A stretch of DNA of 63,575 nt, counting the filler, from Reclinomonas americana ATCC 50394 (Eukaryota), in NCBI GenBank assembly GCA_048213135.1. It is 22 parts of 22 records of this genome, joined end to end, with 100 filler letters (N's around TTAATTAATTAA, not from the genome) between each part and the next. Parts side by side here need not be neighbours in the genome. Positions count along the whole stretch, not along the records: positions 49,364 to 50,896 come from AFZH01024146.1; 21 more parts are not named here. One strand, given 5' to 3'. Within the stretch, counting starts at the first letter, position 1. The number at the start of each line of letters is the position of its first letter. A program made the position numbers and the translations under genes. The notes beneath the pieces were generated by a model. It saw nothing but the letters and a program-made list of their open reading frames with translations. It was not told the DNA's origin and made no database searches. Shown here piece after piece: positions 1,785 to 53,579 of this stretch.

Positions 1785-3199
1785 AGCAAGAAATTCAGAG
1801 TGGTGGTGATGGAGAAGGAGCTTGAAGTGGAGAGCAAGACATTGCTTAGGATGGACTGTGACATACCTGCATCGGTGCGTGCTGAGAGAGTGGGAATGAG
1901 GGGCAGCCGGACGGATGAGTGAGAGAGGGAGAAAGGTTTCACTGGGCAGGCAACACATGCATGTTGTTTGTGAGATTGGTGGATCTTGTCGGGGAAGAAG
2001 AAAACAAAAGCAGAATCACAGTGCACCAAGAGGGACACTGCTTAGTTAAGAAGTTGCCTTGTGTTGTGCGGGATAGACTCTGCATGAGAGTCTTGCCTTC
2101 ATGCTGCTGACTGCTGTTGTTGTTGTGGCAGGAGGGGCAGCTAGACGAATGAAGAATGATGAAAACTGGGGCCATCATGGTATTGTGGGTGCAGCCGCCC
2201 AGGGGCATCCATTTGTATGCGTGCGTGTTGCTCACTCTCAGCGACAACAAACACGAGAATGGCTGTCTTGTTGACCATGTCCAGCCAGATTGGTAACCAA
2301 CGACACGTGCTTCTTCTGTGTTCATGGCAGCGGCAGTGCAGCACATTGCAGGTGCATGATGGCCCACCAGCAGCTGCGGGGACGGGAGAATCCATTGCGA
2401 AATTGTGCAGATGACTCGTGCACGTGTGCATGTGGTTCGATTTTGAAGGAGAAGGAGCTGCTGCTTTCCGGATACTCCTGCACCAGCACTTGACACCATC
2501 TCAACGGGCGCGGTTGGAATGCAGACACGATGACGAGCAGGATTGTGGTGTTCAGCTGCATCGCCGAGATCGAGACCTTCTTATTGTGTCTGTCTGAGGC
2601 TCTTCCTCGGTGTCCATCGAGGTGATGCTGCCCTGATACAGCTGCTCACGTGCGCTGTTGTACCCTGTGTGGAGTTGTCGTCCATCATCATCTCAGCTCC
2701 AGCTTCCCCTGATCCATGTTCTCTCCATGAGAGAAAGATCCAAACAAAGAGACATGCATGTGTTGCTCATGGAGAACAATCGCAGTTGACGATGCACCCA
2801 AGGTTGCCCTGTTCTCTGACACTCCTCTTCTTCCCCACCACACTCCTCCTCCCTCCACATCACGACTTGTCACCTTTTCATCTCGCTGTTCGGATCAACG
2901 AATCTTCATTGCCTCTTTTCTCTCTCTTCGTTTCTTACATCACGCAGCGCGCGTGTGTGCGCGAAACAACAACAAAGACACACACAAATGGCCTCTCGCT
3001 CTCCTCCTCCTCCTCCTCCACGCTCTCGCTCAACAACAACAACAACTCCTTCTCTGCCAATGTCTGCCTCTGCTCCGTGCGACGATGAGAAAGCAGACAT
3101 GATGCTCATCGACAGCAAGCAGCATGGACGATGATGATGCATTCCCCGTCTCCCTCCATCAACGATGAGGATGAGATGAAGAAGAAGAGTGCATTGGGG

Positions 3200-3299
3200 N
3201 NNNNNNNNNNNNNNNNNNNNNNNNNNNNNNNNNNNNNNNNNNNTTAATTAATTAANNNNNNNNNNNNNNNNNNNNNNNNNNNNNNNNNNNNNNNNNNNN
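3200..3299. other. Artificial contig linker N44-TTAATTAATTAA-N44 (first of 21; others start at 8232, 11077, 18206, 20743, 24064, 28331, 30503, 33279, 35295, 40273, 42487, 49264, 50897, 52396, 53776, 55393, 56724, 57897, 59185, 60442)
   Basis: Identical 100-nt cassette with a six-frame stop 12-mer; base composition often changes abruptly across it. Confidence 0.99.
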
Positions 3300-3336
3300 A
3301 CGACGTACGTACGTACGTACGACGTCGTCGGTCGTC

Positions 3337-3395
<59 letters not shown>

Positions 3396-3457
3396 TCTTG
3401 CTGCCTTTGGTGTTCTCGTGTTACGTAATGTCTCACCTGGGCGGTGCATGCACGCAG

Positions 3458-6400
3458 CTGCTCACCAGGAGCGCGTGGAACACACGGCGATGGAAGGCAT
3501 CGTCGAGGTACAGTGACTGTGTGTCATTCCGAGATGAGCGTGTCTCTCAGCAATCTCTCTCTCTGTCTTGGCTTGGTTGCACAGCAACGTGCGAGGGGAC
3601 AGCGAGTCGTCTCGTCTCAGGTGGATCACGATGAGGACTCGCCTGCACGTGACTCAGTTGAGACATCATCCCGCAAGCGTTCTCTGGAGGTGAGCTTCGA
3701 TGAGGCACGCGTCTCACTTCGTCTCTTTCTCGTGCATCGCAGTTGACACCGGATGTTCTATCTTCGTTTTCAGCAGGTGGATGCATCCGGTGATGACGAG
3801 CTTGCACCACCAAAGAAGAAGAAGGTGTGGATTATGTCATTGTCATGGTTCTGCTTATTCATCGATCTGCACGTGGGCTTTTGTGTCATCTGCATGTTGT
3901 GGATTCACAGCGTGGCAAGACTCGGGCGGCGGAAGAGCCAGAAAAATTGAGCGCAGACGAGAAGCTGTTGTTGGACAAGCTGCTCGTTGAGTGTGCATTC
4001 TGTCTGTCGTCGTTGCAACCTTGCGTACTCCTCATTCTCCTCATCTCTTCATGTGTCTCTCGCAGCGGTGCAATCGAAAGAGAGTGCTGGTGAAGGCATT
4101 CGGCCTGGTGGCACCCATCGTTCAGGAATCCACAGTCATCTACCATCACGGTATTCTCTTCGAGGTTGCCTGCGACGACTGCGGAATTCCATTGTCGGAA
4201 CCAAGTCGCACGTCGTCTGCTGTCAAGTGTGCAGTTGGCAAGAGACTTGGCGAGACTGCCAAGGACTCACGCAGCAGAACACCCAAGTCAGTGGAGGGCG
4301 TGCTTCAGAGCGTGAGCCACTACATCGATGTGAGCACGCATGTTCCTGCTGAACGACCGTGGCATCTTGAACCAACATGCAAATGATTGCAATCTACAGA
4401 TGAGCCTACTCAGTGGCGCGGCTCTGGTGGATGCTGTTGAGAGACCGCTGATTGTGGTTGATGAGCGTGGGTATTCGGAGGTGCATTCGTCTTGGCATGA
4501 TCATCGCGTCAGTAGGCCACGCTCACTCGGCTTGCTTGTGACACGAATCGTGGCAGAGATTGCGGCAACTCAGCAAAGCTCAGATAGACCAACTGCAGCC
4601 GTTTGTCATGCAAGCCATGGATGCGTTGCGCGAGTGTGATGGACTCATGGCCGCTCTGCTTCGAGACTGCCACCTCTCCGAGTCCGAGATGTCACGTGCT
4701 GTCGCTTGGTGTCATTCGAAAGGTCTGCAATTTTGTGCGGCTGTTGCTGTTGCTTGCACTGGTATTGACTAGTTCCACGCAGAATCTGGCGATGTGAAAT
4801 TGCTGGTGAAGGAGGAGAAGGATGTGGAAGAAGAGAAGGATGCCGTCAAGCTTGAAGACTATGGCATCAAGGTACGCAGCAAAAGTGCATGAGTTAGAGA
4901 GGCTTGGTGCGAATATGTGAGTCTTCATCGACTCGGTCAAGCGTTGATGCCTTGTGTGTCCGCAGGTGGATGCAGGCGGTGACAGTGACGAAGAATCGAA
5001 GCCGAGAAAGGTATACCGAGACAATGTCTGTGTATGGTTGGTGAGGCAGATATGTTGATTGTGCCGTGGCGTGCGCATTTGCAGCGCGTCAAGTGCGGTC
5101 GCCATGCGTTCGATGCGGATCTGAGCAAGGACGAGCGAATGCTGTTGGACAGACTGCTTGTTGCGTGTGCATGTCCACAACACCACAGCAGGAGAGATTG
5201 ATTGCACCCTGTCATGTACTCGCCTGCCATCACACCTGATGTATGCTTTGTGTGCGAACAGCGATGCAACAAGAGGAAGATACTGGTGATGGCATTCGGC
5301 ATCATGGCACCAATTCTGAAACGAAATGCAGTCTGGCATCATCAGCGAGTTCTTCTTCAACTCGCCTGTAAGGAGTGCGGTATCTCATCATCGGGAGCTG
5401 GCAGTCCGCCGCCCGCAGTCATGGACTCATTCGGCAAGAGTCTTAGCGATTTCGTCAATACTGCACGCACCAAGACATCCAAGTCAGTTGCAGGAGTGCT
5501 GCAGAGCATGAGCAAGTTCATCGAGGTGAGTATCTGTCTGTGCTGTCCGTCTCACACATAACTGCAAAGAGAGCCAACAACGATGCGTGTGCAACTCTTG
5601 CAGAAGAGTGAACTGCGCGGCGCCGCACTGGCGGATGCCATTGAGAGACCACTGATTGTGGTGGATGAACGTGGCCATTCTGAGGTGCGCCAACTTTCTT
5701 TGTGCGCTTTTTGTACTTCTTCTTTGAGTTTTTGACTTACATGCTTCTTCTACGATGTCGGTCGTGCTGTAGGAGTCATGGAAGACGGTGGCGAGAAAAG
5801 GGAGGAGCACGGACCGTCTTTTGCTGCTCGTCTCCCAAGCCGCGCAGGCCCTGCATGAGTGTCCTGGCTTGCAAGTGTCGCTGATTCGAGATGGCTGTCT
5901 CTCCGAGGCGGAGATCGCACGGGCCGTCGAGTGGTGCGCCGAAAGAGGTCTGATGGCATGAGTACGTCTTACCGTGCTTGGGGTCAGAACTGACGAGCGA
6001 GTTGCAGCTCTGCTGGAGGCGAAGGTGCTGAAGAAAGAAGAGATGAAGGAGGAGGAGGAGGAACGGGAGGATGATTCCAGGGAGGAAAAGGACGACGATG
6101 AGGGCGACGACGTGGGCGACGGTGACATGAGCAAGGTACGACCATGGATGGTGAGGCGGTTGCACACTATGACAGCATCTGATGATGTGTATCCACAGCG
6201 GCGAGGGAGAGGTTCTGCAGCAATGAGCAAGGATGAACAGCTGTTGCTGGCAAGGCTACTTGTTGAGTGTGTTTGCATTGATGGCCTTCTCTGGCAGTCG
6301 TCTGGCTGATTGAGTGCTCATCACACCACTGTTTCATGGGAGAGCAGTGCTGCAACAGGAAAGAGATACTGGTGAAGGCGTTTGGCATCATGGCACCGAT

Positions 6401-30602: not shown

Positions 30603-30995
30603 GTCGCGATAGGGGCCATCGGCGCCGAAGCCGGTGATCGAGCAGGCGACGATGCCCGGCCGGATCAGCTGCAGACGCTCCTCGCCGAAGCCGAGTCTGG
30701 CCATCACGCCGGGCCGGAAATTGTCGATCACGGCATCGGCCGTGGCGAGCAGCTGCTCCAGGCCGCGCTTGCCGTCCTCGGTCTTCAGGTCGAGCACGAC
30801 CGAGCGCTTGTTGCGGTTGAAGGAGGCGTAATACCAGCTCAGCCCGTCGCGGCCGGATCCTTGCGTGCGGAGCGGATCGCCCTCGGGCGGCTCGACCTTG
30901 ATCACGTCGGCGCCCAGATCCGCCAGCAGCATCGTGCAGAACGGGCCGGAGATGACGCGCGTGAGATCGACGATTCTTAGGCCGGTCAACGGCAT
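30603..30995 (-). CDS. CaiB/BaiF family III CoA-transferase (3'-truncated), bacterial
   Basis: PLTGLRIVDLTRVISGPFCTMLLADLGADVIKVEPP.GD..R...NRNKRS...DNFRPG. Confidence 0.95.
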
Positions 30996-31013
30996 TATGC
31001 AGCCTCTTGCGGA

Positions 31014-32288
31014 TCAGAAGGAATTCGGCAGCCAGGTGACGATGCCGGGGAAAACGGAGATCAGCACCAGCACCAGCAAGGACCAGCCGAGGAAGGGCAG
31101 GAGCTGGACGGCGATGGGCCAGAGCGGGACGCGGCCGACCGCGCCGGTGACGAAGAGCAGCAGGCCGATCGGCGGATGCAGCATGCCGATCATCAGGTTC
31201 AGCACGACGATCATAGCGAACTGGATCGGGTCGAGGCCGAGCTGCGCCTGGATCGGCAGCAGGGTCGGCACGAACATGACCAGCGCCGGCAGCGGCTCCA
31301 GGATCATCCCGACCACGAACAGCATGAGGTTGACGATCAGCAGGATCACCAGGGGATCGCTCGAGAGCGACAGGATGCCCTGCGAGATGCGCGTGGCGAT
31401 GTGCGATTCGTTGAGCAGCCAGGAGAAGGGGCCGGCCGCCGCCAGCAGGAACAGGATGACCGCCGAGGTCTTGCCCGCGGCGAGGAAGACCTCGCCCAGG
31501 CTGCGGATCTTCAGGTCGCGATAGATCGCGAGCCCGACGATCAGCGCGTAGACGCAGATCACTCCGGCGGCTTCGGTTTCCGTGATGAAGCCCGAGCGGA
31601 TGCCGAGGATGATCAGCACCGGCACCAGCAGGGCCCAGATCGAACCGCGCGTGGCGACGGCGCGCTCCCTCCAGGTCGCGGCCTCCTTGGCGGCATAGCC
31701 CTCCCGCCGCGCGACCCAGGCGCAGATCGCCATATAGCCGAAGAAGAGCAGCAGCCCGGGCACGACGCCGGCCAGGAACAGCTTGCCGATCGAGAGATTG
31801 GCCATGATCGCGTAGATGATCAGCGGGATCGACGGCGGCAGGATCGGCCCGAGCATGGCGCCGGCGGCGATGACGGCAGCGGCGTAGCCGGGCTTGTAGC
31901 CCTCCTTCTTCATCGCCGGGATCAGGATGCCGCCGGTCGCCGTGGCGTCCGCGACGGCCGAGCCCGAGATGCCGGCCATGATCAGGTTGGTCATCAGCGC
32001 GACCTGCGAGAGGCTGCCGCGCAGGTGGCCGACCATGGCGGTCGACCATTCGATCAGGCGGCGCGTGACGCCGCCGCGGTTCATGATCTCGCCGGCCAGG
32101 ACGAAGAGCGGCACGGTGATCAGCGCGGCGCTGTCGACCCCGGAGACCACCGTGAGCGGGGCCATGACCAGGTCGATGCCGCCATGCATGAGCATGCCGA
32201 TCATCGCGGCCAGGATCATGGCGAAGCCGACGTCGAGCCCGGCGACAAGCAGGCCGAAGAAGACGAGCGTGCTAATGATGATCAGCAT
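31014..32288 (-). CDS. dctM: TRAP transporter large permease
   Basis: 424-aa polytopic membrane protein with PLFVLAGEIMNRGG, GISGSAVADA, PPSIPLIIY, HPPIGLLLF. Confidence 0.95.
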   Translation of the reverse strand: MLIIISTLVFFGLLVAGLDVGFAMILAAMIGMLMHGGIDLVMAPLTVVSGVDSAALITVPLFVLAGEIMNRGGVTRRLIEWSTAMVGHLRGSLSQVALMTNLIMAGISGSAVADATATGGILIPAMKKEGYKPGYAAAVIAAGAMLGPILPPSIPLIIYAIMANLSIGKLFLAGVVPGLLLFFGYMAICAWVARREGYAAKEAATWRERAVATRGSIWALLVPVLIILGIRSGFITETEAAGVICVYALIVGLAIYRDLKIRSLGEVFLAAGKTSAVILFLLAAAGPFSWLLNESHIATRISQGILSLSSDPLVILLIVNLMLFVVGMILEPLPALVMFVPTLLPIQAQLGLDPIQFAMIVVLNLMIGMLHPPIGLLLFVTGAVGRVPLWPIAVQLLPFLGWSLLVLVLISVFPGIVTWLPNSF

Positions 32289-32847
32289 GGTCGCTCACCG
32301 TGTCGACGCCGAGCCGGCCGCCCAGCAGCGTGTCCGCCATGCGCAGCAGGAGAAAGATCACCAGCAGGACGAGCCCGGCGAGCAGCGCCCCGTACATGAC
32401 GTCGTAGTAGAAGGGCGTGCCCATGATCGCCTGGAACGAGCCCACCTCCAGCAGCTGCCAACCATTGACCAGCAAGGCGAGCGCGACGAGCAGCATCACC
32501 CCGTCCAGGAAGACGCCGGCGACACGCCGGGCCCTCTCCGGCAGGAAATGCTGGATCACCTCGATCCTGATGTTCATGCGGTCGCGGACGCCAAGCGCGA
32601 AGCCGAGGAAGGCCATCCAGACCATGCCGATGCGGGCGATCTGGTCATGCGCGTCGAACTGCGTCTTCAGCACGTAGCGGTCCGCCACCTGGCCGACGGT
32701 GAAGGTCAGCACCACGACGAGCGCCAGCACGACCAGAACCTTGACCAGCGTCTCTAGGATACGGACGGGCACGACCAGCATGCGTACCCCCTCCCCGCGG
32801 ACGGGCGCAGCGATCCGCCCTCCTGCCCCGGCGTCCGAGACAGCCAT
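32272..32847 (-). CDS. dctQ: TRAP transporter small permease
   Basis: 4-TM protein between dctP and dctM; start overlaps dctP stop (TGATG). Confidence 0.88.
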   Translation of the reverse strand: MAVSDAGAGGRIAAPVRGEGVRMLVVPVRILETLVKVLVVLALVVVLTFTVGQVADRYVLKTQFDAHDQIARIGMVWMAFLGFALGVRDRMNIRIEVIQHFLPERARRVAGVFLDGVMLLVALALLVNGWQLLEVGSFQAIMGTPFYYDVMYGALLAGLVLLVIFLLLRMADTLLGGRLGVDTVSDHADHH

Positions 32848-33278
32848 CAGGCGCCCTGCAGCGTGCGCAGACGGGCGACCATGCCCTTGGGCCACATCTT
32901 GCCGTCGAGCTCGTCCTCGACGCCGGCGACCGCCTTGCGGAAAGCGTCGCGATCAGGGACGACATAGGTACAGCCGGCCTTCTTCAGGATGTCGATCGCC
33001 TCGGTATCGAGCTCCTTGGTCAGTTGGGTGGTGACCTCGCCGGCGGCCTTCGAGGCCTTGCGGAAGATTTGGCGGTCGGTCTCGTTCAGCCCCTTCCAGA
33101 GACGCTCGGAAGCGAAGAAGCCGACGAGCTCGTTGACGTGGTCGGTCGCCGACCAGAACTTGGCTGCCTCGTGGAAGCGCGGCGGGATCGAGAGATCGAA
33201 GCCGTTGTCCTGACCGTCGACCGCGCCGCGCGAGAGCGCGCTGTAGATCTCCAGCATGCCCATCGGCGTGGACTGGGC
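32847..33278 (-). CDS. dctP: TRAP substrate-binding protein (5'-truncated)
   Basis: TPMGMLEIYSALSRGAVDGQDN...FHEAAKF...T.H. Confidence 0.9.
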   Translation of the reverse strand, partial: AQSTPMGMLEIYSALSRGAVDGQDNGFDLSIPPRFHEAAKFWSATDHVNELVGFFASERLWKGLNETDRQIFRKASKAAGEVTTQLTKELDTEAIDILKKAGCTYVVPDRDAFRKAVAGVEDELDGKMWPKGMVARLRTLQGA

Positions 33279-42586: not shown

Positions 42587-42768
42587 ACGAAGACATCGAG
42601 CGAGCGCGGCGCATCGCGCAGCACGATCGGGTGGCGCTCTCGGACGTCGACGGGAACACCGGAGGTCGAGATGTCGCCCTTGGCGCAGGCCCCGAGCAGG
42701 AGCGCAGCGCCGAGCGCGGCCGGCAGCGCGGCCCGGAGCGGCTTTCTGGTCACGATCATGATCGCCAT
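42587..42768 (-). CDS. cpaD: Tad pilus lipoprotein CpaD (3'-truncated)
   Basis: Lipobox LLGAC, D.RERHPIVL motif, immediately downstream of cpaC. Confidence 0.85.
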
Positions 42769-42787
42769 CCTCGTCGCGGCCCCGTGT

Positions 42788-44299
42788 TCAATCGGCGATG
42801 AAACCGACGCGGCCCTTGTAGGCCTGCGGAATCGGCCCGCCGCTCGTCGATCCGTACATCTTGTTCAACCGCCCCATCAGGATCGTCTGGGCGTCGTGCG
42901 CCTCGACGAAGCCGTCGTCCGGGCGCTGCAGCCCGTTGGGGCCGACCGGCTTCACGATATAGGGCGTCACCGCGATCATCAGCTCGGTCTCCTCGCGCTG
43001 ATAGTCGCGCGAGCGGAACATCGCGCCGATGATCGGAATGTTCATCAGGGCCGGCAGCCCGTTGATCGCCTGGCGCGAGACGCGCTGAATCAGGCCGGCG
43101 GTGGCGAGGGTTCCGCCAGAGGGCAATTCCACGGTCGTGTCCGACTTGCGTGTCCGGAAGCCCGGCGCATTGACCGAGCCGGTCTGGGTGGTGTCGGCCA
43201 GACGCAACTGGTTCTCGGCGTCGATCTCCGTGACTTCGGTCGCGACACGCATCGAGATCCTGCCCTCGGACATCACCACCGGCGTGAAGTTCAGGGAGAC
43301 GCCGATCGGCTTGTAGACGATGCTGAGATTGCAGCGCCCGGTGATGTCGCAACTGTAGCCGTTCGGCACCGGAATCTCGCCGCCGGCGACGAATTTGGCG
43401 CTTTCGCCGGAGATGGCCGTCACGGTCGGCTCTGCCAGCACGCGCGACAGGCCAGCGCGCTCGAGCGCACGCATCGTGAAGTTCGAGGCCCTCGCGGAGC
43501 CGTCGGCGTTGACGAGCGAGCCGATCTTGCCGGCGATCGCGGTCGCCGCGAGCTGCTGCGGCTGCACCGAGAACGGATTGTCGATCGTCGGCGTGAGGCT
43601 GAAATTACCGATCTTCCATTCGCCGTTCGAATTGATGCCGAGCTGCTTGATCGCCTTGCGGGCAACCTCGGAGACGACGACCTTGACCATGACCTGGTCG
43701 CGGCCGCGGATCGTCAACGAATTGATCACCGCGCCTTTCGTCGCGCTGGCCCCCTCGCCCGAGGTGCCGACGAAGGCGTTGGCGATGTCCATGGCCTGCG
43801 TCGCCTCGGAGGCGTTCGCGACATTGCCGACGAGCAGGATCGAGTTCCCGGCCGGCTTGACCTGGATCTCTGCGCCCGGCATCGCTGCGCGCAGCGTCTG
43901 GCGCAGCACGTTCAGGTCGCGGCCGACCTCGATCTCCAGCGCCGTGATCTGCCGGCCCTCGGCGTCCATCACGAACATCGAGGTCGCGCCGTCGGCCATG
44001 CCGATGATGAAGAGCTTGCGGGCCGAGCGCACCACGGCGTTCGCAACCTTGGGATTGGCGACGAAGACCTCCTTGGCGTCGCGCGGCAGCTCGACGATCA
44101 ACGAGCGGCCGATCGAGAGGTCGAGGCGGCGCGAGATCGCATGCTCGCTGGCGCCGACATTCAGCACCGGCGCGGCGCCCTTGCTCTGGGCCAGGACCGG
44201 CATGCCGCAGATCGGCATGGCCAGCGACAGGACAGTCAGAGACAGCGCCAGGCTGCGCTTGCGGGCATGGCCGCGATCTGGGTTGGGCATCGGGGTCAT
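42788..44299 (-). CDS. cpaC: Tad pilus secretin CpaC/RcpA
   Basis: VFVANPKVA, BON-like segment, QVMVKVVVSEV, LAEPTVTAISGESAKFVAGGEIP, IPIIGAMFRS...ETEL.I.VTP. Confidence 0.96.
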   Translation of the reverse strand: MTPMPNPDRGHARKRSLALSLTVLSLAMPICGMPVLAQSKGAAPVLNVGASEHAISRRLDLSIGRSLIVELPRDAKEVFVANPKVANAVVRSARKLFIIGMADGATSMFVMDAEGRQITALEIEVGRDLNVLRQTLRAAMPGAEIQVKPAGNSILLVGNVANASEATQAMDIANAFVGTSGEGASATKGAVINSLTIRGRDQVMVKVVVSEVARKAIKQLGINSNGEWKIGNFSLTPTIDNPFSVQPQQLAATAIAGKIGSLVNADGSARASNFTMRALERAGLSRVLAEPTVTAISGESAKFVAGGEIPVPNGYSCDITGRCNLSIVYKPIGVSLNFTPVVMSEGRISMRVATEVTEIDAENQLRLADTTQTGSVNAPGFRTRKSDTTVELPSGGTLATAGLIQRVSRQAINGLPALMNIPIIGAMFRSRDYQREETELMIAVTPYIVKPVGPNGLQRPDDGFVEAHDAQTILMGRLNKMYGSTSGGPIPQAYKGRVGFIAD

Positions 44300-45072
44300 G
44301 GCTTCACCGCCTTGGTGACGACGCCGTAGCGCACGAGGGTCAGCCCCCCATCCTCGCTGGGCGGGCTCTTGTCGCCGGCGTCCTGGAGACTGCGCAGCGA
44401 CAGCGACAGGCTGCTGGTCTTCTGGGCCAGGGTGACGGCCTCGACCTGCTTGGGATCGAGCTCGAGCGTCGCGGTCTCGCCGACGACGACCTTCTCGCCA
44501 TTCTTCTCCTGGATGTTCTGGCCGATCGCCAGCACGCGCACATTGGCGATCAGGGTCTCGCTGACCGGCGCCGAGCCGTCCCTGGAGTTGCTGTCGTCAC
44601 GGGTCGTGCGGATCACGTCGACGCGGTCATTGGGGAGGACGAAGCCGCCGGCGGTGTTGGCGCCGCGGTTGTCGGTGGTGATGGCGACGGCGCGCTTGCC
44701 CGGCGGCAGGATCGCCGAGAGGAAGCCGGAATCGGCCTTGAGCAGCTTCTCGCGACGTATCGGCTCCGAGCCATAGAGCGGCGCACGGGCGATCTGACCG
44801 ACGAATTCAGCCTCGCCCCCGGGAAGATCCTGGCGGCGGATCACCTCGGCCGGCAGGCTCGCCAGCGGCCAAGCCAGCCATTTGAGATCGCCGGCCGCGA
44901 GCCTGTTGCCGATCGGAACATCGGCGGCAGCCACCAGCACCTCGACGGTAGGCGCCGGCTCGTATTTCGTCTCGGACGGCGTGGTGACCTTCGGGGGCCG
45001 GCTGATCAACAGCGCTGCCCCAAGGCCGGCGACGACCGCTATGGCGAGAATGATGATGCGGGCGGGACTCAT
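44296..45072 (-). CDS. cpaB: Flp pilus assembly protein CpaB/RcpC
   Basis: SAF domain VLVAAADVPIG, GKRAVAI, AGGFVLPNDRVDV, NVRVLAIGQ, LSLSLRS. Confidence 0.96.
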   Translation of the reverse strand: MSPARIIILAIAVVAGLGAALLISRPPKVTTPSETKYEPAPTVEVLVAAADVPIGNRLAAGDLKWLAWPLASLPAEVIRRQDLPGGEAEFVGQIARAPLYGSEPIRREKLLKADSGFLSAILPPGKRAVAITTDNRGANTAGGFVLPNDRVDVIRTTRDDSNSRDGSAPVSETLIANVRVLAIGQNIQEKNGEKVVVGETATLELDPKQVEAVTLAQKTSSLSLSLRSLQDAGDKSPPSEDGGLTLVRYGVVTKAVKP

Positions 45073-45130
45073 GGCACACGATCCTTGGTCGGCATGCGCC
45101 GACCCTCAGCCGGATCGTGGCCTTGGAATC

Positions 45131-45146
45131 GTCAACTTATGGTTAA
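45131..45146 (-). promoter_or_regulatory. Probable CtrA site upstream of cpaB
   Basis: Minus strand TTAA-CCATAAG-TTGAC (TTAA-N7-TTAAC with one mismatch); adjacent GANTC site at 45126. Confidence 0.6.
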
Positions 45147-45197
45147 CCGGAGGTATCTTTTTGTGCGGATCGACCGTTCCGGAGCGGGACCGCCCCA

Positions 45198-45719
45198 TCA
45201 AGAACCGATCGCGGCACGCCAGATCGCCGTCTCCGGCAGAACGACGAGCGCGGCGAAGGCGAGAGCGATGCCGTAGGGCACGCCTTCGTCCTTGTCATGC
45301 AGGCGCTGCGCCCAGCCCCAGCCCAATGCCGGCCGAGGCAGCGGCAGCTTCCTCAGGCTGAGCAGCGCGAGGGTGAGGGCTCCCCCGGCGACCGCCGAGA
45401 TGAAGACATAAGGCAGCAACTGGTCGAAACCGAACCAGAGCGCCGTCACCGCGGCGAGCTTGGCATCGCCGCCGCCGATCCAGCCCGCCGCGAAGAAGCC
45501 GAATGTGACGCTGAGGACGAGGAAGCCGGCAGCCAGATGCCAGCCCAGTTGCGTCCAGCTCAGGCCGACGCTGGCCGCGCAGAGCGCGAAGCCGGCGACG
45601 AGAACCAGGCAGAGCCGGTTGGAGATCGTCATCGACACCATGTCGCTGGCCGCGGCGTAAGCCATGGCCGCGGGAAAGACGACGATGATCAGGAACAGCG
45701 AAACCGACATGACAGCCAT
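45198..45719 (-). CDS. cpaA: Prepilin peptidase A24 (CpaA/TadV)
   Basis: AAASD...TISN, IGGGDAKL, VPYGIAL. Confidence 0.95.
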   Translation of the reverse strand: MAVMSVSLFLIIVVFPAAMAYAAASDMVSMTISNRLCLVLVAGFALCAASVGLSWTQLGWHLAAGFLVLSVTFGFFAAGWIGGGDAKLAAVTALWFGFDQLLPYVFISAVAGGALTLALLSLRKLPLPRPALGWGWAQRLHDKDEGVPYGIALAFAALVVLPETAIWRAAIGS

Positions 45720-45801
45720 CCGATGAGCAGGGGCGACATTACCGCTTCGACCTCACCAAAGACTTACCGGCACAAGGCGAGGTGGAATTCACCCCCCAAA
45801 C

Positions 45802-45836
45802 GGGAAGCGCCCTGGATAGGCTCCAAGGCGCTTCCT
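45802..45836 (-). terminator. Stem-loop between the pilin genes and cpaA
   Basis: ggaagcgcc-N-ggcgcttcc inverted repeat ~30 nt downstream of the last pilin stop. Confidence 0.6.
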
Positions 45837-45865
45837 GCCGTTCGATGATGATCGCCCTGGCGAGT

Positions 45866-46030
45866 TTACTTCAGCTTGTCGCTGACCGTCGTGAACTGGC
45901 CGACCAGGCCGGTGCCGACGGTGCCCCAGACGCCGATGCAGACGACCGAGATCAAAGCGGCGATCAGGCCGTACTCGATGGCGGTGGCACCCGACTCGTC
46001 CTTGGCAAACCGCTTGAACAGGTTCTTCAT
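45866..46030 (-). CDS. pilA: Flp family type IVb pilin, copy 3 (54 aa)
   Basis: MKNLFKRFAKDESGATAIEYGLIAALISVVCIGVWGTVGTGLVGQFTTVSDKLK; below the ORF-track length cutoff. Confidence 0.96.
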   Translation of the reverse strand: MKNLFKRFAKDESGATAIEYGLIAALISVVCIGVWGTVGTGLVGQFTTVSDKLK

Positions 46031-46058
46031 GGTCTTCCCCCCGCTTGCCGGACGACGC

Positions 46059-46223
46059 TTACTTCAGCTTGTCGCTGACCGTGGTGAACTTGCCGACCAG
46101 GCCGGTGCCGACAGTGCCCCAGACGCCGATGCAGACGACCGAGATCAGCGCTGCGATCAGGCCGTATTCGATGGCGGTCGCGCCGGACTCATCCTTGGCG
46201 AAGCGCGCAAACAGGTTCTTCAT
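46059..46223 (-). CDS. pilA: Flp family type IVb pilin, copy 2 (54 aa)
   Basis: MKNLFARFAKDESGATAIEYGLIAALISVVCIGVWGTVGTGLVGKFTTVSDKLK. Confidence 0.96.
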   Translation of the reverse strand: MKNLFARFAKDESGATAIEYGLIAALISVVCIGVWGTVGTGLVGKFTTVSDKLK

Positions 46224-46250
46224 GGTCTTTCTCCGCTTGCCGGATGAAAC

Positions 46251-46415
46251 TTACTTCAGCTTGTCGCTGATCGTCGTGAACTTGCCGACCAGGCCGGTTC
46301 CGACGGTGCCCCAGACGCCGATGCAGACGACCGAGATCAGGGCGGCGATCAAGCCGTATTCGATGGCGGTGGCGCCCGACTCGTCCTTGGCGAAGCGCGC
46401 AAACAGGTTCTTCAT
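46251..46415 (-). CDS. pilA: Flp family type IVb pilin, copy 1 (54 aa)
   Basis: MKNLFARFAKDESGATAIEYGLIAALISVVCIGVWGTVGTGLVGKFTTISDKLK; AAGGAG RBS upstream. Confidence 0.96.
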   Translation of the reverse strand: MKNLFARFAKDESGATAIEYGLIAALISVVCIGVWGTVGTGLVGKFTTISDKLK

Positions 46416-46510
46416 GGGTAGCTCCTTTGCACCACGTTTGACTGCTGCCTTCGCTCTAGGTGGCTTCGGTCAGCGACAGGAGTGACACTAGGACGCCCGC
46501 CTTGCCGATC

Positions 46511-46604
46511 GGTTAAAGCGACCCAATAATTCGCCGAATTTTACAGGTCTTCGCTCAATGGTTAACGCGCTTTTAGCGCGCTCTGTCAGTTAACGAGAGG
46601 TATA
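46511..46604 (-). promoter_or_regulatory. Cluster of CtrA-like sites in the pilin promoter
   Basis: Minus strand CTAA-N7-TTAAC (46561-46576), TATA-N7-TTAAC (46589-46604), plus a TTAAC half site at ~46512. Confidence 0.6.
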
Positions 46605-46840
46605 ATCTTTCCGATACTTCAAATATAACTCGGCAGACGAATCAGAAATGCGCCGCATAACGTTTCGTCAGTGCGAGCGACCCGACATCGCCATGCGCTT
46701 TTCATTGGCGACGATCAGGCTTCCAGGGCCGGTGAGAAAGCCGGATTGGCTGCGGAAATCGCGATCTTAGCAATCCATTCATCATTTTCGGCTTACCTCG
46801 TCCCGTTCGAAACCTTGAGGCGCGCGCGAGGTCCATTGCG

Positions 46841-47377
46841 ATGCCGGGATCGCGGCTCTCCAAATCCTTTCCAAGGCTGGTCCTTGCCGGGCTCGCGGCG
46901 GCTGCCGGCTTGAGCCTGTCGGCCGATATCGTACGCGCTCAAGCTCGGCTCATTCCCGCGCCAGCCCCGGAATCCCGTGGCGATGTCGGCGAAGCGGTCC
47001 AGGTCGTGGTCGACCATGCCAAGGTGCTGCGCCTGCCCGAGAAGGCGCAGACGGTGATCGTCGGCAATCCGGCGATCGCGGACGTGACGGTCCAGCGCAA
47101 CGGCGTGATGATCGTCACCGGCAAGAGCTACGGCGTCACCAACCTGATCGCGCTCGACGCGACCGGCGCCCTGCTGGCGGAATCCTCGGTTCGCGTCGGC
47201 GCCGCCACCGATTCGATCCTGACTGTGCAGCGCGGCCTCGAGCGCGAGAGCTATTCCTGCACGCCCAATTGCCAGCCGAGCGCCCAGCTCGGCGATTCCA
47301 AGGCGTTCTTCGATGGCACGAGCGGCCAAAGCGGCGCCCGCAACGCCGCTGCGACGGGCAGCGGGGAGAAGAAGTAG
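46841..47377 (+). CDS. Pilus assembly protein with T2SS/T3SS pilus N-terminal domain
   Basis: VDHAKVLRLPEKAQTVIVGNPAIADV...GKSYGVTNLIALD...YSCTPNC; divergent from the pilins as in Cpa loci. Confidence 0.88.
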   Translation: MPGSRLSKSFPRLVLAGLAAAAGLSLSADIVRAQARLIPAPAPESRGDVGEAVQVVVDHAKVLRLPEKAQTVIVGNPAIADVTVQRNGVMIVTGKSYGVTNLIALDATGALLAESSVRVGAATDSILTVQRGLERESYSCTPNCQPSAQLGDSKAFFDGTSGQSGARNAAATGSGEKK

Positions 47378-47404
47378 CTCTCCCCGCCCTGCCCGCGAGA
47401 CCGA

Positions 47405-48904
47405 TCAGATCGTCTGATTGTAAGCGCCGACTTCCGGATTCTCGCGCAGAACCCCGTCGATCGCCTTGAACATCTCGCGCATGCGCGCTTCCGAGACCGG
47501 GCTTTCGCAGACCACGACCAGCTCGGGCTTGTTCGAGGACGCCCGGATCAGGCCCCAGGTGCCATCCGCGTTGACGACACGCACGCCGTTGACGGTGATG
47601 ACGTCGACGATTGCCTGGCCGGCGATCTTTTCGCCCGCTGCCTGCATCGCCTGAATCCGCTTGGTGATCTTGTCGCTGACGCCGTATTTCACCTCGTCGG
47701 CGCATTTGGCCGCCATGGTCGGCGTGCCCCAGGTCTTCGGCACGGCGGCATAGAGCTCGGCCATCGACTTATCCGGGTTGCGGTCGAGCATGTCGATCAC
47801 GGCGATGGCGGTGACGACGCCGTCGTCATAGCCCCGGCCGACCGGCGCGTTGAAGAAGAAGTGGCCGGACTTCTCGAAGCCGGCGAGGGCATTGAGGTCG
47901 CGGACCCGGCGCTTGATATAGGAATGGCCGGTCTTCCAGTAATCGGTCTTGACGCCGAGCCGCTGCAGTTCCGGATCGGTCGAGAACAGGCCGGTCGACT
48001 TGACGTCGACGACGAACTGCGCGCCCGGATTGAGCTTGCCGAGGTCGCGGGCGAGCATCACGCCGATCTTGTCGGCGAAGATCTCCTCGCCATGGTTGTC
48101 GACGACGCCGCAGCGGTCGCCGTCACCGTCGAAGCCGAGCGCGACATCGGCGCCGTGCTGCTTCACGGCATCGGCCATGGCGTGCAGCATCTTCATGTCT
48201 TCGGGGTTCGGATTGTAGCGCGGGAAGGTGTGGTCGAGCTCGGCATCCATCGGGATGACCTCGCAGCCGAGCGCTTCCAGAATCCGGGGCGCGAAGGCGC
48301 CAGCCGTGCCGTTGCCGCAGGCGGCGATGACCTTGAGCTTGCGCGTGATCTTCGGGCGGTTGGTCAGGTCGGCGATGTAGCGCGCCGGGAAATCGGGCAC
48401 GAACTGGTAGGAGCCGCCGCCGGGAAGGTCGAAATCGCCGGCGAGCACGATGTCGCGCAGCTGCCCCATCTCGTCGGGGCCGAAGGTGACGGGACGCTGC
48501 GCCCCCATCTTGATGCCGGTCCAGCCATTGTCGTTGTGCGAGGCGGTTACCATGGCGACGCAAGGCACGTCGAGCTCGAACTGGGCGAAATAGGCCATGG
48601 GCGACATGGCGAGGCCGATGTCGTGGACCTTGCAGCCGGCCGCCATCAGGCCGGTGACCAGCGCCATCTTGATCGAGGAGGAATAGCTGCGGAAGTCATG
48701 GGCGGTGACGATCTCGGGCTTGACGCCCATGCGCCTGATCAGCGTGCCGAGGCCCATGCCGACGGCCTGGACGCCCATCAGGTTGAGCTCCTTCCCGAAG
48801 AACCAGCGCGCATCGTATTCGCGGAAGCCGGTCGGCTTCACCATCGGCAGCGATTCGTACTCGAACGTGTTGGGGAAGAGCTCGGGCAGGGGCTTCGGGA
48901 ACAT
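47405..48904 (-). CDS. Phosphomannomutase/phosphoglucomutase (AlgC-like), 499 aa; real start MFPKP
   Basis: FREYDAR, MVTASHN phosphoserine loop, FDGDGDR metal loop, GFEKSGH, RASSNKP. Confidence 0.95.
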   Translation of the reverse strand: MFPKPLPELFPNTFEYESLPMVKPTGFREYDARWFFGKELNLMGVQAVGMGLGTLIRRMGVKPEIVTAHDFRSYSSSIKMALVTGLMAAGCKVHDIGLAMSPMAYFAQFELDVPCVAMVTASHNDNGWTGIKMGAQRPVTFGPDEMGQLRDIVLAGDFDLPGGGSYQFVPDFPARYIADLTNRPKITRKLKVIAACGNGTAGAFAPRILEALGCEVIPMDAELDHTFPRYNPNPEDMKMLHAMADAVKQHGADVALGFDGDGDRCGVVDNHGEEIFADKIGVMLARDLGKLNPGAQFVVDVKSTGLFSTDPELQRLGVKTDYWKTGHSYIKRRVRDLNALAGFEKSGHFFFNAPVGRGYDDGVVTAIAVIDMLDRNPDKSMAELYAAVPKTWGTPTMAAKCADEVKYGVSDKITKRIQAMQAAGEKIAGQAIVDVITVNGVRVVNADGTWGLIRASSNKPELVVVCESPVSEARMREMFKAIDGVLRENPEVGAYNQTI

Positions 48905-49079
48905 CGGGCCATCCATCTTCGAGGAGCACGGGCGATGAGGCCCGCGCGGAAACCATGCAGCTGACGCGTGCGGTACGGACAGGCCACAGGCTACATGAAT
49001 GCAGCCTGAGCATGACAGGGCAAGGACGCAAGGCGGGCATAGCTCATCCGTATGAGCTTGCAAACAAACGGCCCGATCC

Positions 49080-49263
49080 TCAACCGCGCAGGACCATGCG
49101 GCCGCCCTGGACCTCGTAGCCGCGTAGCCGGCGCAGGAAGGAGGTGCCGAGCAGGCTGATCGAGAGGGCGCCGGCAGGCAGCACCACGGCCTCGACATCG
49201 CGCACCGAGATGTCGCCGAGCCGCACCTCGCGCAGCATCGTCTTCGCCCCCCGCACCACGCCG
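49080..49263 (-). CDS. C-terminus of clan AA aspartic protease (TIGR02281-like), 5'-truncated
   Basis: LREVRLGDISVRDVEAVVLPAGALSISLLGTSFLRRL....QGGRMVLRG*. Confidence 0.8.
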
Positions 49264-49399
49264 NNNNNNNNNNNNNNNNNNNNNNNNNNNNNNNNNNNNN
49301 NNNNNNNTTAATTAATTAANNNNNNNNNNNNNNNNNNNNNNNNNNNNNNNNNNNNNNNNNNNNCCTTACATGATGAGTTTGGAGTCAATGTCCCCTATT

Positions 49400-49640
49400 G
49401 CGTTTGTTCTCAGCCCTTTGAACTGGGCGGCATCCAGGTGAGCCCGATCACGAATACCAGCGAGCGGAGCCTCGCCTGTACCACCTTACATCCGGTCGGC
49501 GCTCGTGGCGGCCGTACCATAATCCCACATTCGGGGAGGGCTCAGGAGAACGGGACCCTTCTTGAGGCCGGCTGGCAAGCCATGGTTTGTACCGGTCCGT
49601 TCACCTGGATCCGCCAGGGTCGAGCAGGCCCTGGCGATTG
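49400..49640 (-). ncRNA. Candidate bridge/seek RNA in the IS110 downstream NCR
   Basis: Nested stems (ATCCAGGTGA 49432-49441 / TCACCTGGAT 49601-49610; hairpin 49612-49636) and an internal 8-nt copy of the element end (CCTTACAT at 49364 and 49484); boundaries approximate. Confidence 0.65.
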
Positions 49641-49656
49641 GGTTGGTCGTAGGAAG

Positions 49657-50811
49657 TCAAGCTTTGGCCAGGATGGCCCCTTCGATCACGATGCCACTCG
49701 TTGCATATTTCCAGAGCGCGACGAGTAGCTTGCGCGCCAAGGCGACGATCGCGATCTTCTTGCCGCGCCCACCGTTGTGAGCGATCCGCTCATGGAACCA
49801 GCGAGCCAGGGCCGAGGCCGGCTGATAGCGCACCCAAAGCCACGCAACCTGGATCATCGTCGTGCGCAGCCGGGGGTTGCCCGCCTTCGAGACACCCTGC
49901 TCGCGATCGATCGAGCCGCTTCGCCATGGCGACGGCGCAAGGCCGGCATAGGCCGCGACCTGACGACGGTTGTCGAAGTGTCGGGATAGTCCCTCGCCGA
50001 CCAGAATGTTCGCGAACTCCGGGCCGATGCCCTTGAGCGCGCTGAGCACCGTCAAGGGGGAGGTCTCATTTGCATCGGCGCATAGGTTATCGCGCTCGGC
50101 TTCAACGGCCTTGATCTGTTCGTTGAGCAGCTCGAGCCGGTCGAGTTCACGGCCGATCCGTGCCTTGAGATAGGCAGGCAGCGCTCGGCCATCACCCGTG
50201 TATAGCGCCTCCAGACGCGCACGCCGGTCTCGGCGGATTGGCTTGTAATCCCGCACACCGACGCTGAACAGCAGACCCTTGATACGGTTGACGTGCATCG
50301 TGCGTTCCCGAACGAGAGTCTTGCGCTCCCGACCGAGCCGACGCCGATCCTCGTCCTCCACCGGCGGCACGCGCACCATCGAACAGACCCGTGGCTCCCC
50401 CCGGATCCACGCCATCAGCGTGCGGACCAGCGTCTCGCCGTCGATGCGGTCGGTCTTCGCCCGGCGATGCCTGCGCGACACCGCGATCGAGGCGGCGTCC
50501 ACGACATGGCTCGTGATCCATGCCTCCGCTACCAGCGCACGGTGGATCCAGAAACCATCGAGCCCGGCCTCCTGGATGACAATCACCGGATAGAGCCGAC
50601 CTTCCCGCGCCTGCACTTTCGTGCGGACTGCATTCAGCGAGTCGAGCAGCGCCGGCATATCACCGCCAGGCACGGAATAACGCGACATCTTCTCGCTGCC
50701 CGGCGACAGCAAGGTCACCAGCCATGTCGACTTCGACAGTTCCAGAGAAACGAAAATCGAGCCGAGGTCGGTGCGGATAGCGGCGGGTGTCGAGACAGGG
50801 GTAGCTGGCAT
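49657..50811 (-). CDS. IS110-family transposase/recombinase (RuvC-like N-domain + Tnp20 C-domain), 384 aa
   Basis: SLELSK, QEAG..GFW, RAKTDRID, GIGP, AYAGLAPSPWRSG, SKAGNPRLR, IVALARKL. Confidence 0.96.
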   Translation of the reverse strand: MPATPVSTPAAIRTDLGSIFVSLELSKSTWLVTLLSPGSEKMSRYSVPGGDMPALLDSLNAVRTKVQAREGRLYPVIVIQEAGLDGFWIHRALVAEAWITSHVVDAASIAVSRRHRRAKTDRIDGETLVRTLMAWIRGEPRVCSMVRVPPVEDEDRRRLGRERKTLVRERTMHVNRIKGLLFSVGVRDYKPIRRDRRARLEALYTGDGRALPAYLKARIGRELDRLELLNEQIKAVEAERDNLCADANETSPLTVLSALKGIGPEFANILVGEGLSRHFDNRRQVAAYAGLAPSPWRSGSIDREQGVSKAGNPRLRTTMIQVAWLWVRYQPASALARWFHERIAHNGGRGKKIAIVALARKLLVALWKYATSGIVIEGAILAKA

Positions 50812-53579
50812 CGCGTGGTCGTCCTTCAGAGTGGGCTCGGTAAACTGACTCTGCCCTCACGCAGTCCGCCGTCCACCACTCGTCATAGGATCTTGANNNN
50901 NNNNNNNNNNNNNNNNNNNNNNNNNNNNNNNNNNNNNNNNTTAATTAATTAANNNNNNNNNNNNNNNNNNNNNNNNNNNNNNNNNNNNNNNNNNNNCGCG
51001 CACAAGGTACATAAAATGCAACCTTACCTAAGGACCGGAACCATGTGAAAAAAACGTTTCGGTTTTCGCGCCCATACTTTCAGACAAAAGTGGTCGTCCA
51101 TTGTTTTCATTGCCCGTCCGGTGCGGCGCACTCTGGCGAGCAGAATGGTATGCGTTGAGTGGAGCAGAGGTCACGGGAACATTTTTGTTTTCGCGGTGCC
51201 ATGTGCGTTCGATCGGCGTAACGGTCGTGTCCGACAAGTGGCCACTCTGCGCAAAGTGCACGAAGGACTCGAGTGGTGAGGGAGCGGCGCAGTGCATTGT
51301 GTAGACCGCACTTTGGCGTGCACGGAGCACCTTTCGGTGCGGCAAGAACATGTGTGGATAACGAGTGGCGGCTGAGATGGCAGGAGACTTTCGCGCGTGG
51401 TTTTCGGAGGGGCATCTGGGCGTGCTGCATACCACAGTGGAGAGCAGCCTCTCCCGAACACAATGGTGCTAACCTCATAGGCAGGAGATGTACAGAAGAT
51501 GGTGAAGTCAAGGCGTTCCGATTCCGAACACCGGCACCCCCCAGAAAAAACAGTCTGCATTGTGGTGGGTGAAGTACTTTTATGGGCTCGCCTTGTAGCC
51601 CGCTGTCTCACGGTCATGGTGAACCCGCGGGAGCTTTGTTGGTCAAGTTGCAAGGGCATGGAAAATCGAATATACTGTGTCAGATTGACTGTCGTTGTCC
51701 TCGCAGGTTTTTGTTCATGTGAGTGAGTCGGTGAGCAAGAGTGAGAGTGAGTGAGTGAGAGAGAGAGAGAGCGCGCAGAGAGAGAGAGAGAGCGCAGAGA
51801 GCGCAGAGAGAGAGAGAGAGTGCAAGAGAGCGCACAGAGAGAGAGAGGAGTCGGCGAGTGCGCGCGAGTTGACATTGGTGCACGTGAGTGAGTGGGAGCA
51901 TGAGTGAGAGCGCGTGTGAAACAGTGGGATTGTTTGGGTGTGAGAGGGTGAGAGATACACGTGCCCTCAACCCTCAAAGACACGCAGAATGCAATTGCAA
52001 GAGAGTGAAAGAGAGTGAGAGTGAGAATGAGAGTGCGTGTGATGGAGAGAGAGTGTGTGTGTGTGTGTGTGAGTTGCTGCAGTTCTCTCAACAGTAGGAT
52101 GATAGTGTTGGGCATTTCAGCTGCAGTTGTTGTGCGAAGACATGGTAGCGCTGGTTATGGTGTTTGCGTGGTCGCCTGTGCGTCCACGTGGTGCATGTAC
52201 TTCTAAGTGTCGCGCGATTCGGGGTGTCATGCATATGGTTGATGTGTGCCGTTGCTTTGTTTGTGTGAAGAGAGAGAGAACGAGAAAGGGAGAGAGAGAA
52301 AGAGAGACAGGGAGAGAGAGAGGGAGAGACAGGGAGAGAGAGAGAAAGAGAGAGGGAGAGACGAGGGAGAGAGGAGAGAGAGAGAGAGGAGGAGANNNNN
52401 NNNNNNNNNNNNNNNNNNNNNNNNNNNNNNNNNNNNNNNTTAATTAATTAANNNNNNNNNNNNNNNNNNNNNNNNNNNNNNNNNNNNNNNNNNNNACACA
52501 CTCTCTCTCTGTCCTCCCTCCCTCCCTCTCTGTCTCCTTCCCCCACAATCTCTCTCCGCTCTCTCGCTCGCTCTACCTTTATTGTTTGTGCGTCTTCTTT
52601 GTCTCAGCAGGCCACCATGGCCACTATGATTTGCTGGTTTGAGAGAAAGCGAGCGAGAGAAAGAGAGATGCCGAGGTCAACATGACGCGTCGACGTGACT
52701 GTCGACATGTCAGAGCACAGCAATGTCGTTGCTGGTGGCAGCGGTGCTGGCTTTGCGTGCACGCATCTCGCCGTAACGGCAACCGATGTGGCCTTGTGCG
52801 GTCGGTCAGCTGATGCTTGCGACACTCGTGTCGGAGCCTCGTGTGTAACATCAGCAAGAGCGTGACGCACCGAGATGCAGTTCTAGAATTCTTTTTGAAT
52901 GCGAGACGAAGCTGATGTGCTGACGAGTGCAGTCTCAAGAACCACCGCGATACGCGACGGTGACCGCGGGAGCATCCAATGAACCTCACAGTGAGAATGA
53001 ATGAAGAACGCTTTATTACTCGCACACACAGTCGCATCCATGATCTCTCTCACATGCGTCAAAGGCGACACACTGGGTGGGGGGGGACACAGCCGGAATA
53101 CGACAGCGAGTAGTACATCTCGTCTCGTCTACTAACCCACGCAGTGCGGAACAATCTCTTTCTCCCAATCTCTCCCTCCCTCTCTCCCCCTCAGTCGACA
53201 CGGTGGCAGAGCGGATGCGCAACAGAACAAAGAAACCGGTGATGGCCAACCGCAGATGTGCGAAAATGCACAGAACACTGCAGGGGCGTGACACTGGCAC
53301 GGAACACGAACGCAGAGAGACACGAGGAAGACGGAAACCAGCTGCATCTTGCCGGTGGGGAGGGAGAGAAAGAGAGCAAGGGACTAGTCGACTGGATGGG
53401 GAGGAAGAGCTCGAGGAAGAGTCAAGGAGAGAACGCGGAGGCGTTTTCTCACATACTGTTAGACAGACAGACAGCGGGAAGAAAAACGACGTGAGATTGC
53501 TGGAGTGAAAGGAGAACGGCGAGCGGATGAGTGACGGAGGAGAGAGAGAGAGACAGAGTGAGAGAGAGAGCGACGGGGA

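Follow-up and report, generated by a model that had tools for sequence, protein, structure and literature searches.

An IS1111-type insertion sequence with a candidate bridge RNA and readable target and right-end guides in a Reclinomonas americana assembly

The DNA analysed here, referred to as the window, is a stretch of 63,575 nucleotides (nt) from the assembly of Reclinomonas americana ATCC 50394 (GCA_048213135.1), in which small contigs are strung together by N/TTAATTAATTAA spacers. One of these contigs (AFZH01024146.1; positions 49364-50896, 1,533 bp, 63% G+C) appears, from its sequence, to be a complete and apparently intact insertion sequence (IS) of the IS110 family and of the IS1111 type. 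Downstream of the transposase gene lies a non-coding region that is predicted to encode a bridge RNA (seekRNA) of about 205 nt (49432-49636, minus strand). We give a probability of about 0.88 to the reading that this is a complete IS1111-type element whose 3' region encodes a bridge RNA with target and right-end guides. An earlier note on this DNA had already pointed out several of the stems and an 8-nt repeat; as a single sequence these features are not beyond chance, and they are significant only through comparison with relatives.

The element, its gene and its ends

Since N/TTAATTAATTAA spacers lie on both sides, the termini of the contig are assembly ends. The transposase gene, the element's ends and the short pieces of flanking DNA are arranged as follows, where L081 denotes an identical copy described below:

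50894-50896, minus strand: left target flank TCA, the last three of the five left-guide bases CCTCA; the L081 copy reads ...CACCTCA/AG/ATCC
50892-50893, minus strand: core dinucleotide AG of the left junction, kept across relatives
50878-50891, minus strand: left end, a 5-nt extension ATCCT and then the sub-terminal inverted repeat ATGACGAGT; family consensus ATCC(C/T)ATG...
49657-50811, minus strand: transposase gene, 384 amino acids (aa), NCBIfam NF033542 at 217 bits
49383-49388, minus strand: outward-facing -35-like TTGACT, a putative promoter element
49367-49378, minus strand: right end, the sub-terminal inverted repeat ACTCATCAT and then a 3-nt extension GTA, placed by the end alignment of relatives
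49365-49366, minus strand: core AG of the right junction, placed by the relatives' ends and the L081 copy
49364, minus strand: right target flank, a single base G; the right flank of L081 starts GTTTGT

The encoded protein matches NF033542, the model of IS110 family RNA-guided transposases, at 217 bits (cutoff 140), its residues 20-373 covering positions 1-341 of the 343 in the model. It also matches Pfam PF02371 at 4e-17; PF01548 reaches 24.2 bits, under its cutoff of 29. Its C-terminal domain aligns to the solved transposases of ISCro4 and IS621 in the PDB (E = 9e-11 for IS621), including the ...AGL.P....SGS stretch into which S298 falls. At least 97% of 75 relatives keep the residues E24, E81, D121, D124 and S298-G299. 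The first putative catalytic acid is a glutamate (VSLELSK; E24, codon 50740-50742), where aspartate is the usual IS110 residue; to judge by the motif, E24 may be equivalent to D11 of IS621.

Several traits place the element in the IS1111 group. The longer non-coding region lies 3' of the transposase gene, with 293 nt (49364-49656) compared to about 80-85 nt on the 5' side of the open reading frame (ORF), so that the 293 non-coding nt described in the earlier note after the transposase stop are confirmed as the remainder next to the ORF at 49657-50811 (minus strand). The C-terminal motif GL-P----S(T)G of the IS1111 group (Siddiquee et al., 2024, PMC11187229) is present as GLAPSPWRSG, and sub-terminal inverted repeats in the group's range of 7-17 bp are found with short terminal extensions. 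The protein length of 384 aa, counted from the first ATG with the family model beginning at residue 20, falls outside the 330-350 aa given for IS1111 transposases (PMC11187229), which is a descriptive range and no strict criterion.

For the comparison we scanned one genome per species and obtained 80 loci (L001-L080) encoding relatives of the transposase, with 61-80% identity in the best aligned segment and mostly from Alphaproteobacteria. DNA similarity among them reaches well into the 3' non-coding region. In a plasmid collection 280 records gave a match, with a best DNA identity of 77%. Before counting we left out L012, L058, L063 and L042, whose right ends were mis-called by the pattern, L003, L010, L045, L057, L033 and L037, whose non-coding regions are truncated or unalignable, and loci with a flank that runs off the contig or contains N.

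Aligned ends of the relatives define a common anatomy. On the left it reads flank-N/AG/ATCC(C/T)ATG... followed by the inverted repeat, and on the right TTGAC, a fixed spacer, the inverted repeat and ...CAT(G/A)T(G/A)/AG/flank. In the window element ATGACGAGT (50878-50886) and ACTCATCAT (49370-49378) are complementary at 8 of 9 positions by eye and lie 5 and 3 nt from the core; among the relatives L020, for example, reaches 10/10. AAG had been suggested as a possible core shared by both ends, which did not hold: the base before the left-junction AG varies between A, G, C and T among relatives, and therefore the core is AG. Likewise, ATGTAAGG had been described as the last 8 nt of the element. 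Seven of these belong to it, and the final G (49364) is a target base, since the contig carries one base of right flank. The contig thus ends 1 and 3 bases past the cores, though the guides described below specify 7 and 5 bases; possibly the assembly broke there at several copies with partly different flanks, or the ends were trimmed.

The predicted RNA and its guides

On the coding strand, the non-coding region offers the following elements of a folded RNA:

49612-49636, minus strand: SL1, the 5' stem-loop (helix 1)
49604-49610, minus strand: 5' half ATCCAGG of the long-range stem enclosing both loop domains, pairing with 49432-49438 (helix 2)
49594-49602, minus strand: 5' half GAACGGACC of the target-domain stem, pairing with 49548-49557 (helix 3)
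49585-49592, minus strand: candidate right-target guide GTACAAAC, antisense to right flank +8 to +1
49569-49582, minus strand: small hairpin capping the target loop (TGGC...GCCG; helix 4)
49561-49567, minus strand: candidate left-target guide CCTCA with the core AG, reading in the sense of left flank -5 to -1 and core
49548-49557, minus strand: 3' half GGTCCCGTTC of the target-domain stem (helix 3)
49439-49545, minus strand: donor-binding multiloop domain with three hairpins inside (helices 6-10)
49485-49491, minus strand: candidate left-donor guide ATGTA and core AG, identical to the right-end terminal 7-mer
49484, minus strand: handshake-like base G after the donor guide and core, the same as the first base of the right target flank
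49446-49453, minus strand: 3' strand TCGTGATC of the donor loop; GATC within it is a candidate short left-end guide
49432-49438, minus strand: 3' half CCTGGAT of the long-range stem (helix 2)

The fold was examined on an alignment (A2) of 67 distinct sequences of the conserved part. RNAalifold proposes 33 pairs on it, 19 of them with compensatory changes. A fuller model of 55 pairs in 10 helices, which includes the 5' hairpin, the long-range stem and both sub-domain stems, is paired in 88.9% of the cells, whereas models with partners slid by 1-3 columns are paired in 25.4-46.6%. The same holds for pairs with compensatory changes (32/55 vs 15-27 when slid) and for cells with such changes (227 vs 36-76), and none of 500 shuffles attains the observed value on any of five measures. 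The covariation analysis that the earlier note had called for, run here on 67 relatives, thus supports its reading of the region.

All four stems seen earlier in the single sequence are recovered in the family. Each of the seven pairs of the 5' hairpin shows compensatory changes. The long-range stem (49601-49610 with 49432-49441) is complementary over all 10 nt, and its 7-bp core is paired in 88.8% of cells; RNAalifold had instead put GGATCC.AGG in a local pairing with a nearby CCTG, which we replaced in favour of this perfect 10-mer. For the stem GAACGGACC/GGTCCCGTTC the values are 93.8% paired and 6/9 compensatory pairs, and for the hairpin GGTACAGGCGAG/CTCGCTGGTATT (helix 10) 78.5% and 6/9. 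Besides, the hairpin capping the target loop is 98.1% paired and nearly invariant, and the donor domain is closed by CTGAGCC (49539-49545) and GGCTCA (49439-49444) as helix 5, with 93.2% paired and four compensatory pairs. The counts of helix 6 are blurred by the hairpin at 49524-49536, which occurs in two alignment registers between subfamilies.

To identify guides, each variable RNA column was compared with each flank or end position in all relatives with placeable ends. Right flank positions +1 to +7 are antisense to RNA positions 49585-49591 in 26-39 of 49 relatives, with 13-16 expected, and left flank positions -5 to -1 are the same as RNA positions 49563-49567 in 43-53 of 57, with 14-23 expected. 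The earlier proposal that the loop around GGTACAAACC specifies the target proved right, as its 5' strand at GGTACAAACC is antisense to right flank +1 to +7; its 3' strand CCTCA-AG, overlooked at that time, equals left flank -5 to -1 and the core. The right-target guide is followed by a C at 49584, placed opposite the core G, and the left-target guide and core by an invariant A at 49560. As reported for IS1111 seekRNAs (Siddiquee et al., 2024, PMC11187229), the stretch matching the top strand is located 5' of the one matching the bottom strand. Loop matches to both target strands around the core are seen in the family as well as in the element's own copy L081.

The possibility that the 3' region is a cis-acting DNA element or a small gene instead of an RNA, the matches then reflecting the way the ends were defined or a target-site duplication, has to be judged on these data. 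The minimum free energy of the 293 nt as a single sequence is no better than that of shuffles (z = -0.52), the non-coding region matches no Rfam family even up to E = 10 (three weak matches elsewhere on the contig are all under their gathering scores), and a 96-aa ORF on the plus strand (49438-49728) overlaps the region. Nevertheless, 32 of 55 pairs stay paired through two-sided changes, which argues for selection on an RNA or single-strand fold. A duplication would also not yield a right match in antisense and a left match in sense that both adjoin the core in register, and the flanks vary between relatives while the loops vary along with them. We therefore regard this explanation as very improbable.

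In the donor domain, ATGTAAGG is indeed copied exactly, with two occurrences in the window (49364-49371 and 49484-49491, both on the minus strand); this 8-mer occurs two or more times in 9 of 100 shuffles of the window as well. As a donor guide it stands for the seven bases ATGTAAG, and its terminal G matches the target and not the donor. The 7-mer of the donor loop equals that of the right end in 51 of 54 distinct relatives, and this in five haplotypes (ATGTGAG 33, ATATAAG 9, ATATGAG 6, ATGTAAG 2, ATACAAG 1). In the three misses, the right junctions of L018, L023 and L048, the DNA core is AA and the RNA keeps AG, perhaps through decay of the copies or because mismatches in the core are tolerated. 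Right-end positions -3 and -1 agree with the donor loop in the same sense in 53/53, with 30 and 34 expected. The next base, 49484, is compatible with pairing to the bottom strand at the first position of the right flank in 51 of 52 relatives (28.6 expected), and within the RNAs it covaries with the target loop (55/67 vs 33 expected; 0 of 5000 permutations).

These numbers also bear on the idea that the seekRNA reads the target only, with ATGTAAG acting as a processing or transposase-binding signal or in excision or regulation, and the protein reading the ends. For ISEc11 a short seekRNA of 82 nt with only target matches is sufficient for transposition, the role of the long RNA being left open (PMC11187229), so that a donor-guide function is not known to be experimentally established in IS1111-type elements. 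Moreover, no left-end guide is demonstrable here, and the clear sub-terminal inverted repeats could be read by the protein. A protein or processing signal, however, needs no letter-for-letter identity, yet the five haplotypes match their own right ends, and the following base tracks the first base of the target, as would be expected of a handshake during strand exchange (IS621; PMC11208158). We thus consider it improbable that the seekRNA reads the target alone.

The identical copy L081 and the sites of insertion

From the loops alone we had derived the expected target GCCTCA-AG-GTTTGTAC and put it in writing at a time when no flank had been seen. Metagenome contigs were afterwards searched for exact matches to the 24 terminal bases, which gave one contig, L081, whose copy is identical to the window element in 1533 of 1533 positions. 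It reads ...CACCTCA/AG/ at its left junction and /AG/GTTTGTTC... at its right junction. Compared with the expected ...CCTCA-AG-GTTTGTA..., the observed ...CCTCA/AG/.../AG/GTTTGTT... agrees at 5/5 left and 6/7 right covarying positions, position +8 of the right flank fits the guide too, and the 3 + 1 flank bases of the window contig itself agree with the guides. Of the earlier suggestion to recover flanks and empty sites and to compare loop and target, the flank part therefore succeeded and an empty site was not recovered. Elsewhere in the window, the predicted target has one match with three mismatches (46806-46821), which we rejected as chance since 28 of 100 shuffles contain one or more matches of this kind.

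The surroundings of L081 are rich in mobile DNA. Its left flank (L081 1-494) belongs to a Tn3-family tnpA, an IS21-type istB-like ORF lies just right of the copy (L081 2161-2991, plus strand), and a second, different IS110-family-like transposase ORF of 324 aa follows at 3015-3989 (minus strand). With the istB-like and the second IS110-like ORF beside the copy, the site is a nest of mobile elements. A comparable picture emerges at the junctions of the relatives. Among 94 stop-free frames touching them, 31 have a Pfam match at E<=1e-5, and 23 of these 31, spread over 20 loci, are domains of transposases from other IS families: IS5-like DUF4096/DDE_Tnp_1, IS630-like DDE_3/HTH_32, IS256-like, IS3-like rve, IS91-like, IS6-like, IS66 and DUF772. 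These junctions suggest that the family redirects itself to other mobile DNA. A limited literature search on IS110-type elements aimed at other transposase genes found nothing relevant, and the idea may still be published.

The exact element is present in public sequencing runs of 14 studies with very different sample types. Fifteen runs contain at least half of its sampled words, and contigs of four runs carry all 1,533 bases without any difference and extend past the element. An IS unchanged in such different samples suggests a widespread associated or contaminating bacterium. The window itself mixes G+C-rich bacterial contigs (e.g. 42587-49263, 30603-33278 and 60542-63575; about 65-67% G+C) with contigs of lower G+C, which start in simple repeats (CT, GT or GA runs) and look non-bacterial. 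One of the former contains, at 45866-46415 (minus strand), three tandem and nearly identical ORFs of 54 aa (MKNLF.RFAKDESGATAIEYGLIAALISV...), which we presume to resemble Flp-type pilin genes.

Against this background it can be asked whether the element is a decayed or inactive copy, its RNA features being relics without present function in the genome. It is a stand-alone contig in a mixed assembly, and no circle junction was seen. On the other hand, the ORF is full-length with conserved putative catalytic residues, the ends and all guides are intact, the same sequence recurs without difference in the four runs and at least half of its words in the 15, and the L081 flanks fit the element's own guides. 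We consider an inactive copy unlikely.

Several further points weigh against a functional bridge RNA as proposed here, in addition to the fold energy, the Rfam search and the ISEc11 short seekRNA mentioned above. No left-end (right-donor) guide is demonstrable: between the left end and the donor loop's 3' strand no covariation is seen, and a search by eye and with column statistics gave no signal beyond relatedness, where the family hardly varies at its left end and covariation therefore cannot test such a guide. As many of the relatives are themselves related, not all of the counted cases are independent events. The flanks of L081 do not form one gene, as the left is Tn3-family tnpA and the right leads to IS21 istB, with a stop codon (by eye) in the tnpA frame on the right side; the contig may be rearranged or chimeric. 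An empty site for L081 was not recovered, an Ancylobacter relative (91% identical) being too different near the junction, and the plasmid collection gave no match to the first 141 nt of the right flank. The contigs of the four public runs, in which junctions are not readable, showed no circle junction, and the sole RNA-seq run with the element is represented by assembled contigs and is therefore silent on transcription.

Proposed mechanism and comparison with known systems

By analogy to IS621 and ISEc11, the transposase gene and the RNA would be transcribed together, and the element would excise as a circle joining right end, AG and left end. In the target loop, the top strand right of the insertion point would be the pairing partner of the 5' strand GTACAAAC, and the bottom strand left of it that of the 3' strand CCTCA-AG; in the donor multiloop, ATGTA-AG would pair with the right end's bottom strand. 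Following the same models, the RNA on the DEDD/Ser transposase would hold the circle junction beside the target, and strand exchange at the AG core would lead to insertion in one orientation at ...CCTCA-AG-GTTTGTA.... The left end might be recognized by a very short RNA match, by protein contacts with the sub-terminal inverted repeats, or by both; the candidate GAUC (49446-49449) could pair with G-ATC of AG/ATCC over 3-4 nt.

With regard to transcription from the circle, the TTGACT at 49383-49388, earlier suggested as a possible -35 element of a junction promoter, is present and conserved in position. Of 59 relatives, 56 have TTGAC; its distance to the core AG is 17 nt in 42 of them, 18 nt in 6 and 12 nt in 8, and the other 3 lack it. 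A convincing -10 element across the junction was not found: the candidates 16-18 nt after TTGACT (by eye) read AGATCC, GATCCT and ATCCTA, most relatives have GATCCC, and only the subgroup with 12-nt spacing would place TATGAG as -10. The linear contig contains neither a full sigma-70 consensus promoter nor a terminator. The conserved spacing of TTGAC fits a candidate junction promoter of the kind proposed for IS1111 elements (PMC11187229).

A more far-reaching proposal concerns the whole clade of IS1111-type elements with transposases of about 365-384 aa. It might perform, and offer a natural code book for, a mirrored form of bridge recombination, with 5-nt left and 7-nt right target guides around AG, a donor guide that reads just the right end, one handshake base after the left-donor guide and glutamate in place of the first catalytic aspartate, and, by repeated retargeting onto conserved parts of the transposase genes of other transposons (IS5-, IS630-, IS256-, IS3-, IS91- and IS6-like, and Tn3), it might live as a hyperparasite of mobile DNA. 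We put this forward as a tentative idea, which as a whole is possible rather than probable; the mirrored form and the hyperparasite features may not yet have been described for IS1111-type elements.

RNA-guided IS110/IS1111 recombinases are under development as programmable tools for the insertion of large DNA, and the range of usable scaffolds grows with every natural family whose guide code can be read. Here the family comparison yields the guide positions, the core and the handshake-like position directly. The element appears intact and may be a new programmable recombinase ortholog, as the earlier note proposed; identical copies exist in many public samples, and a stand-alone contig of 1.5 kb is explained as an ordinary mobile element.

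The closest described systems are the seekRNAs of ISEc11, ISPa11, ISKpn4 and ISPst6 (Siddiquee et al., 2024, PMC11187229). They share with our element the downstream non-coding region, the sub-terminal inverted repeats and the GL-P----SG motif (GLAPSPWRSG here), as well as the natural redirection of relatives through changes in the seekRNA stretches. In contrast, our transposase has 384 aa instead of 330-350 aa (PMC11187229), and the sequence is different, with no close match and at best 77% DNA identity in the plasmid collection. The element described here would furthermore have a longer RNA with a covarying right-end match and a handshake-like base, which are not assigned in the available part of PMC11187229.

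IS621 (Durrant et al., 2024, PMC11208160; Hiraizumi et al., 2024, PMC11208158) likewise carries target- and donor-binding loops on one RNA and uses a DEDD + Ser recombinase, to whose C-terminal domain ours aligns, with the first catalytic acid here appearing to be glutamate. In IS621 each loop reads both sides of the short core dinucleotide, whereas here the reading by the donor loop is seen for the right end, with no evident right-donor guide. The handshake bases of IS621 pair with non-cognate DNA after strand exchange (PMC11208158); base 49484 resembles them but follows the left-donor guide and not the right-donor guide. Further differences lie in the location of the RNA (left end, upstream of the gene, in IS621; right end here), in the core (CT in IS621, AG here), in the order of the target guides, which is reversed here, and in the donor bases, which are placed in a multiloop instead of a simple internal loop.

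Such a multiloop is found for the donor-binding bases of many IS1111 bridge RNAs (Durrant et al., 2024, PMC11208160). Right-end bridge RNAs were predicted in 93% of the IS1111 elements in ISfinder by the same study, and for specialists our result is therefore a confirmation rather than a surprise. Fig. 6/Extended Data Fig. 10 of that paper include IS1111-group predictions, three of ISPpu10, ISAar29, ISHne5, ISCARN28, ISAzs32 and ISPa11. Compared by text, these predictions belong to the same class as ours, being computational, encoded at the right end and with donor bases in a multiloop. Judged against these systems, the element would be a further example of a kind of RNA-guided transposon that is already known.

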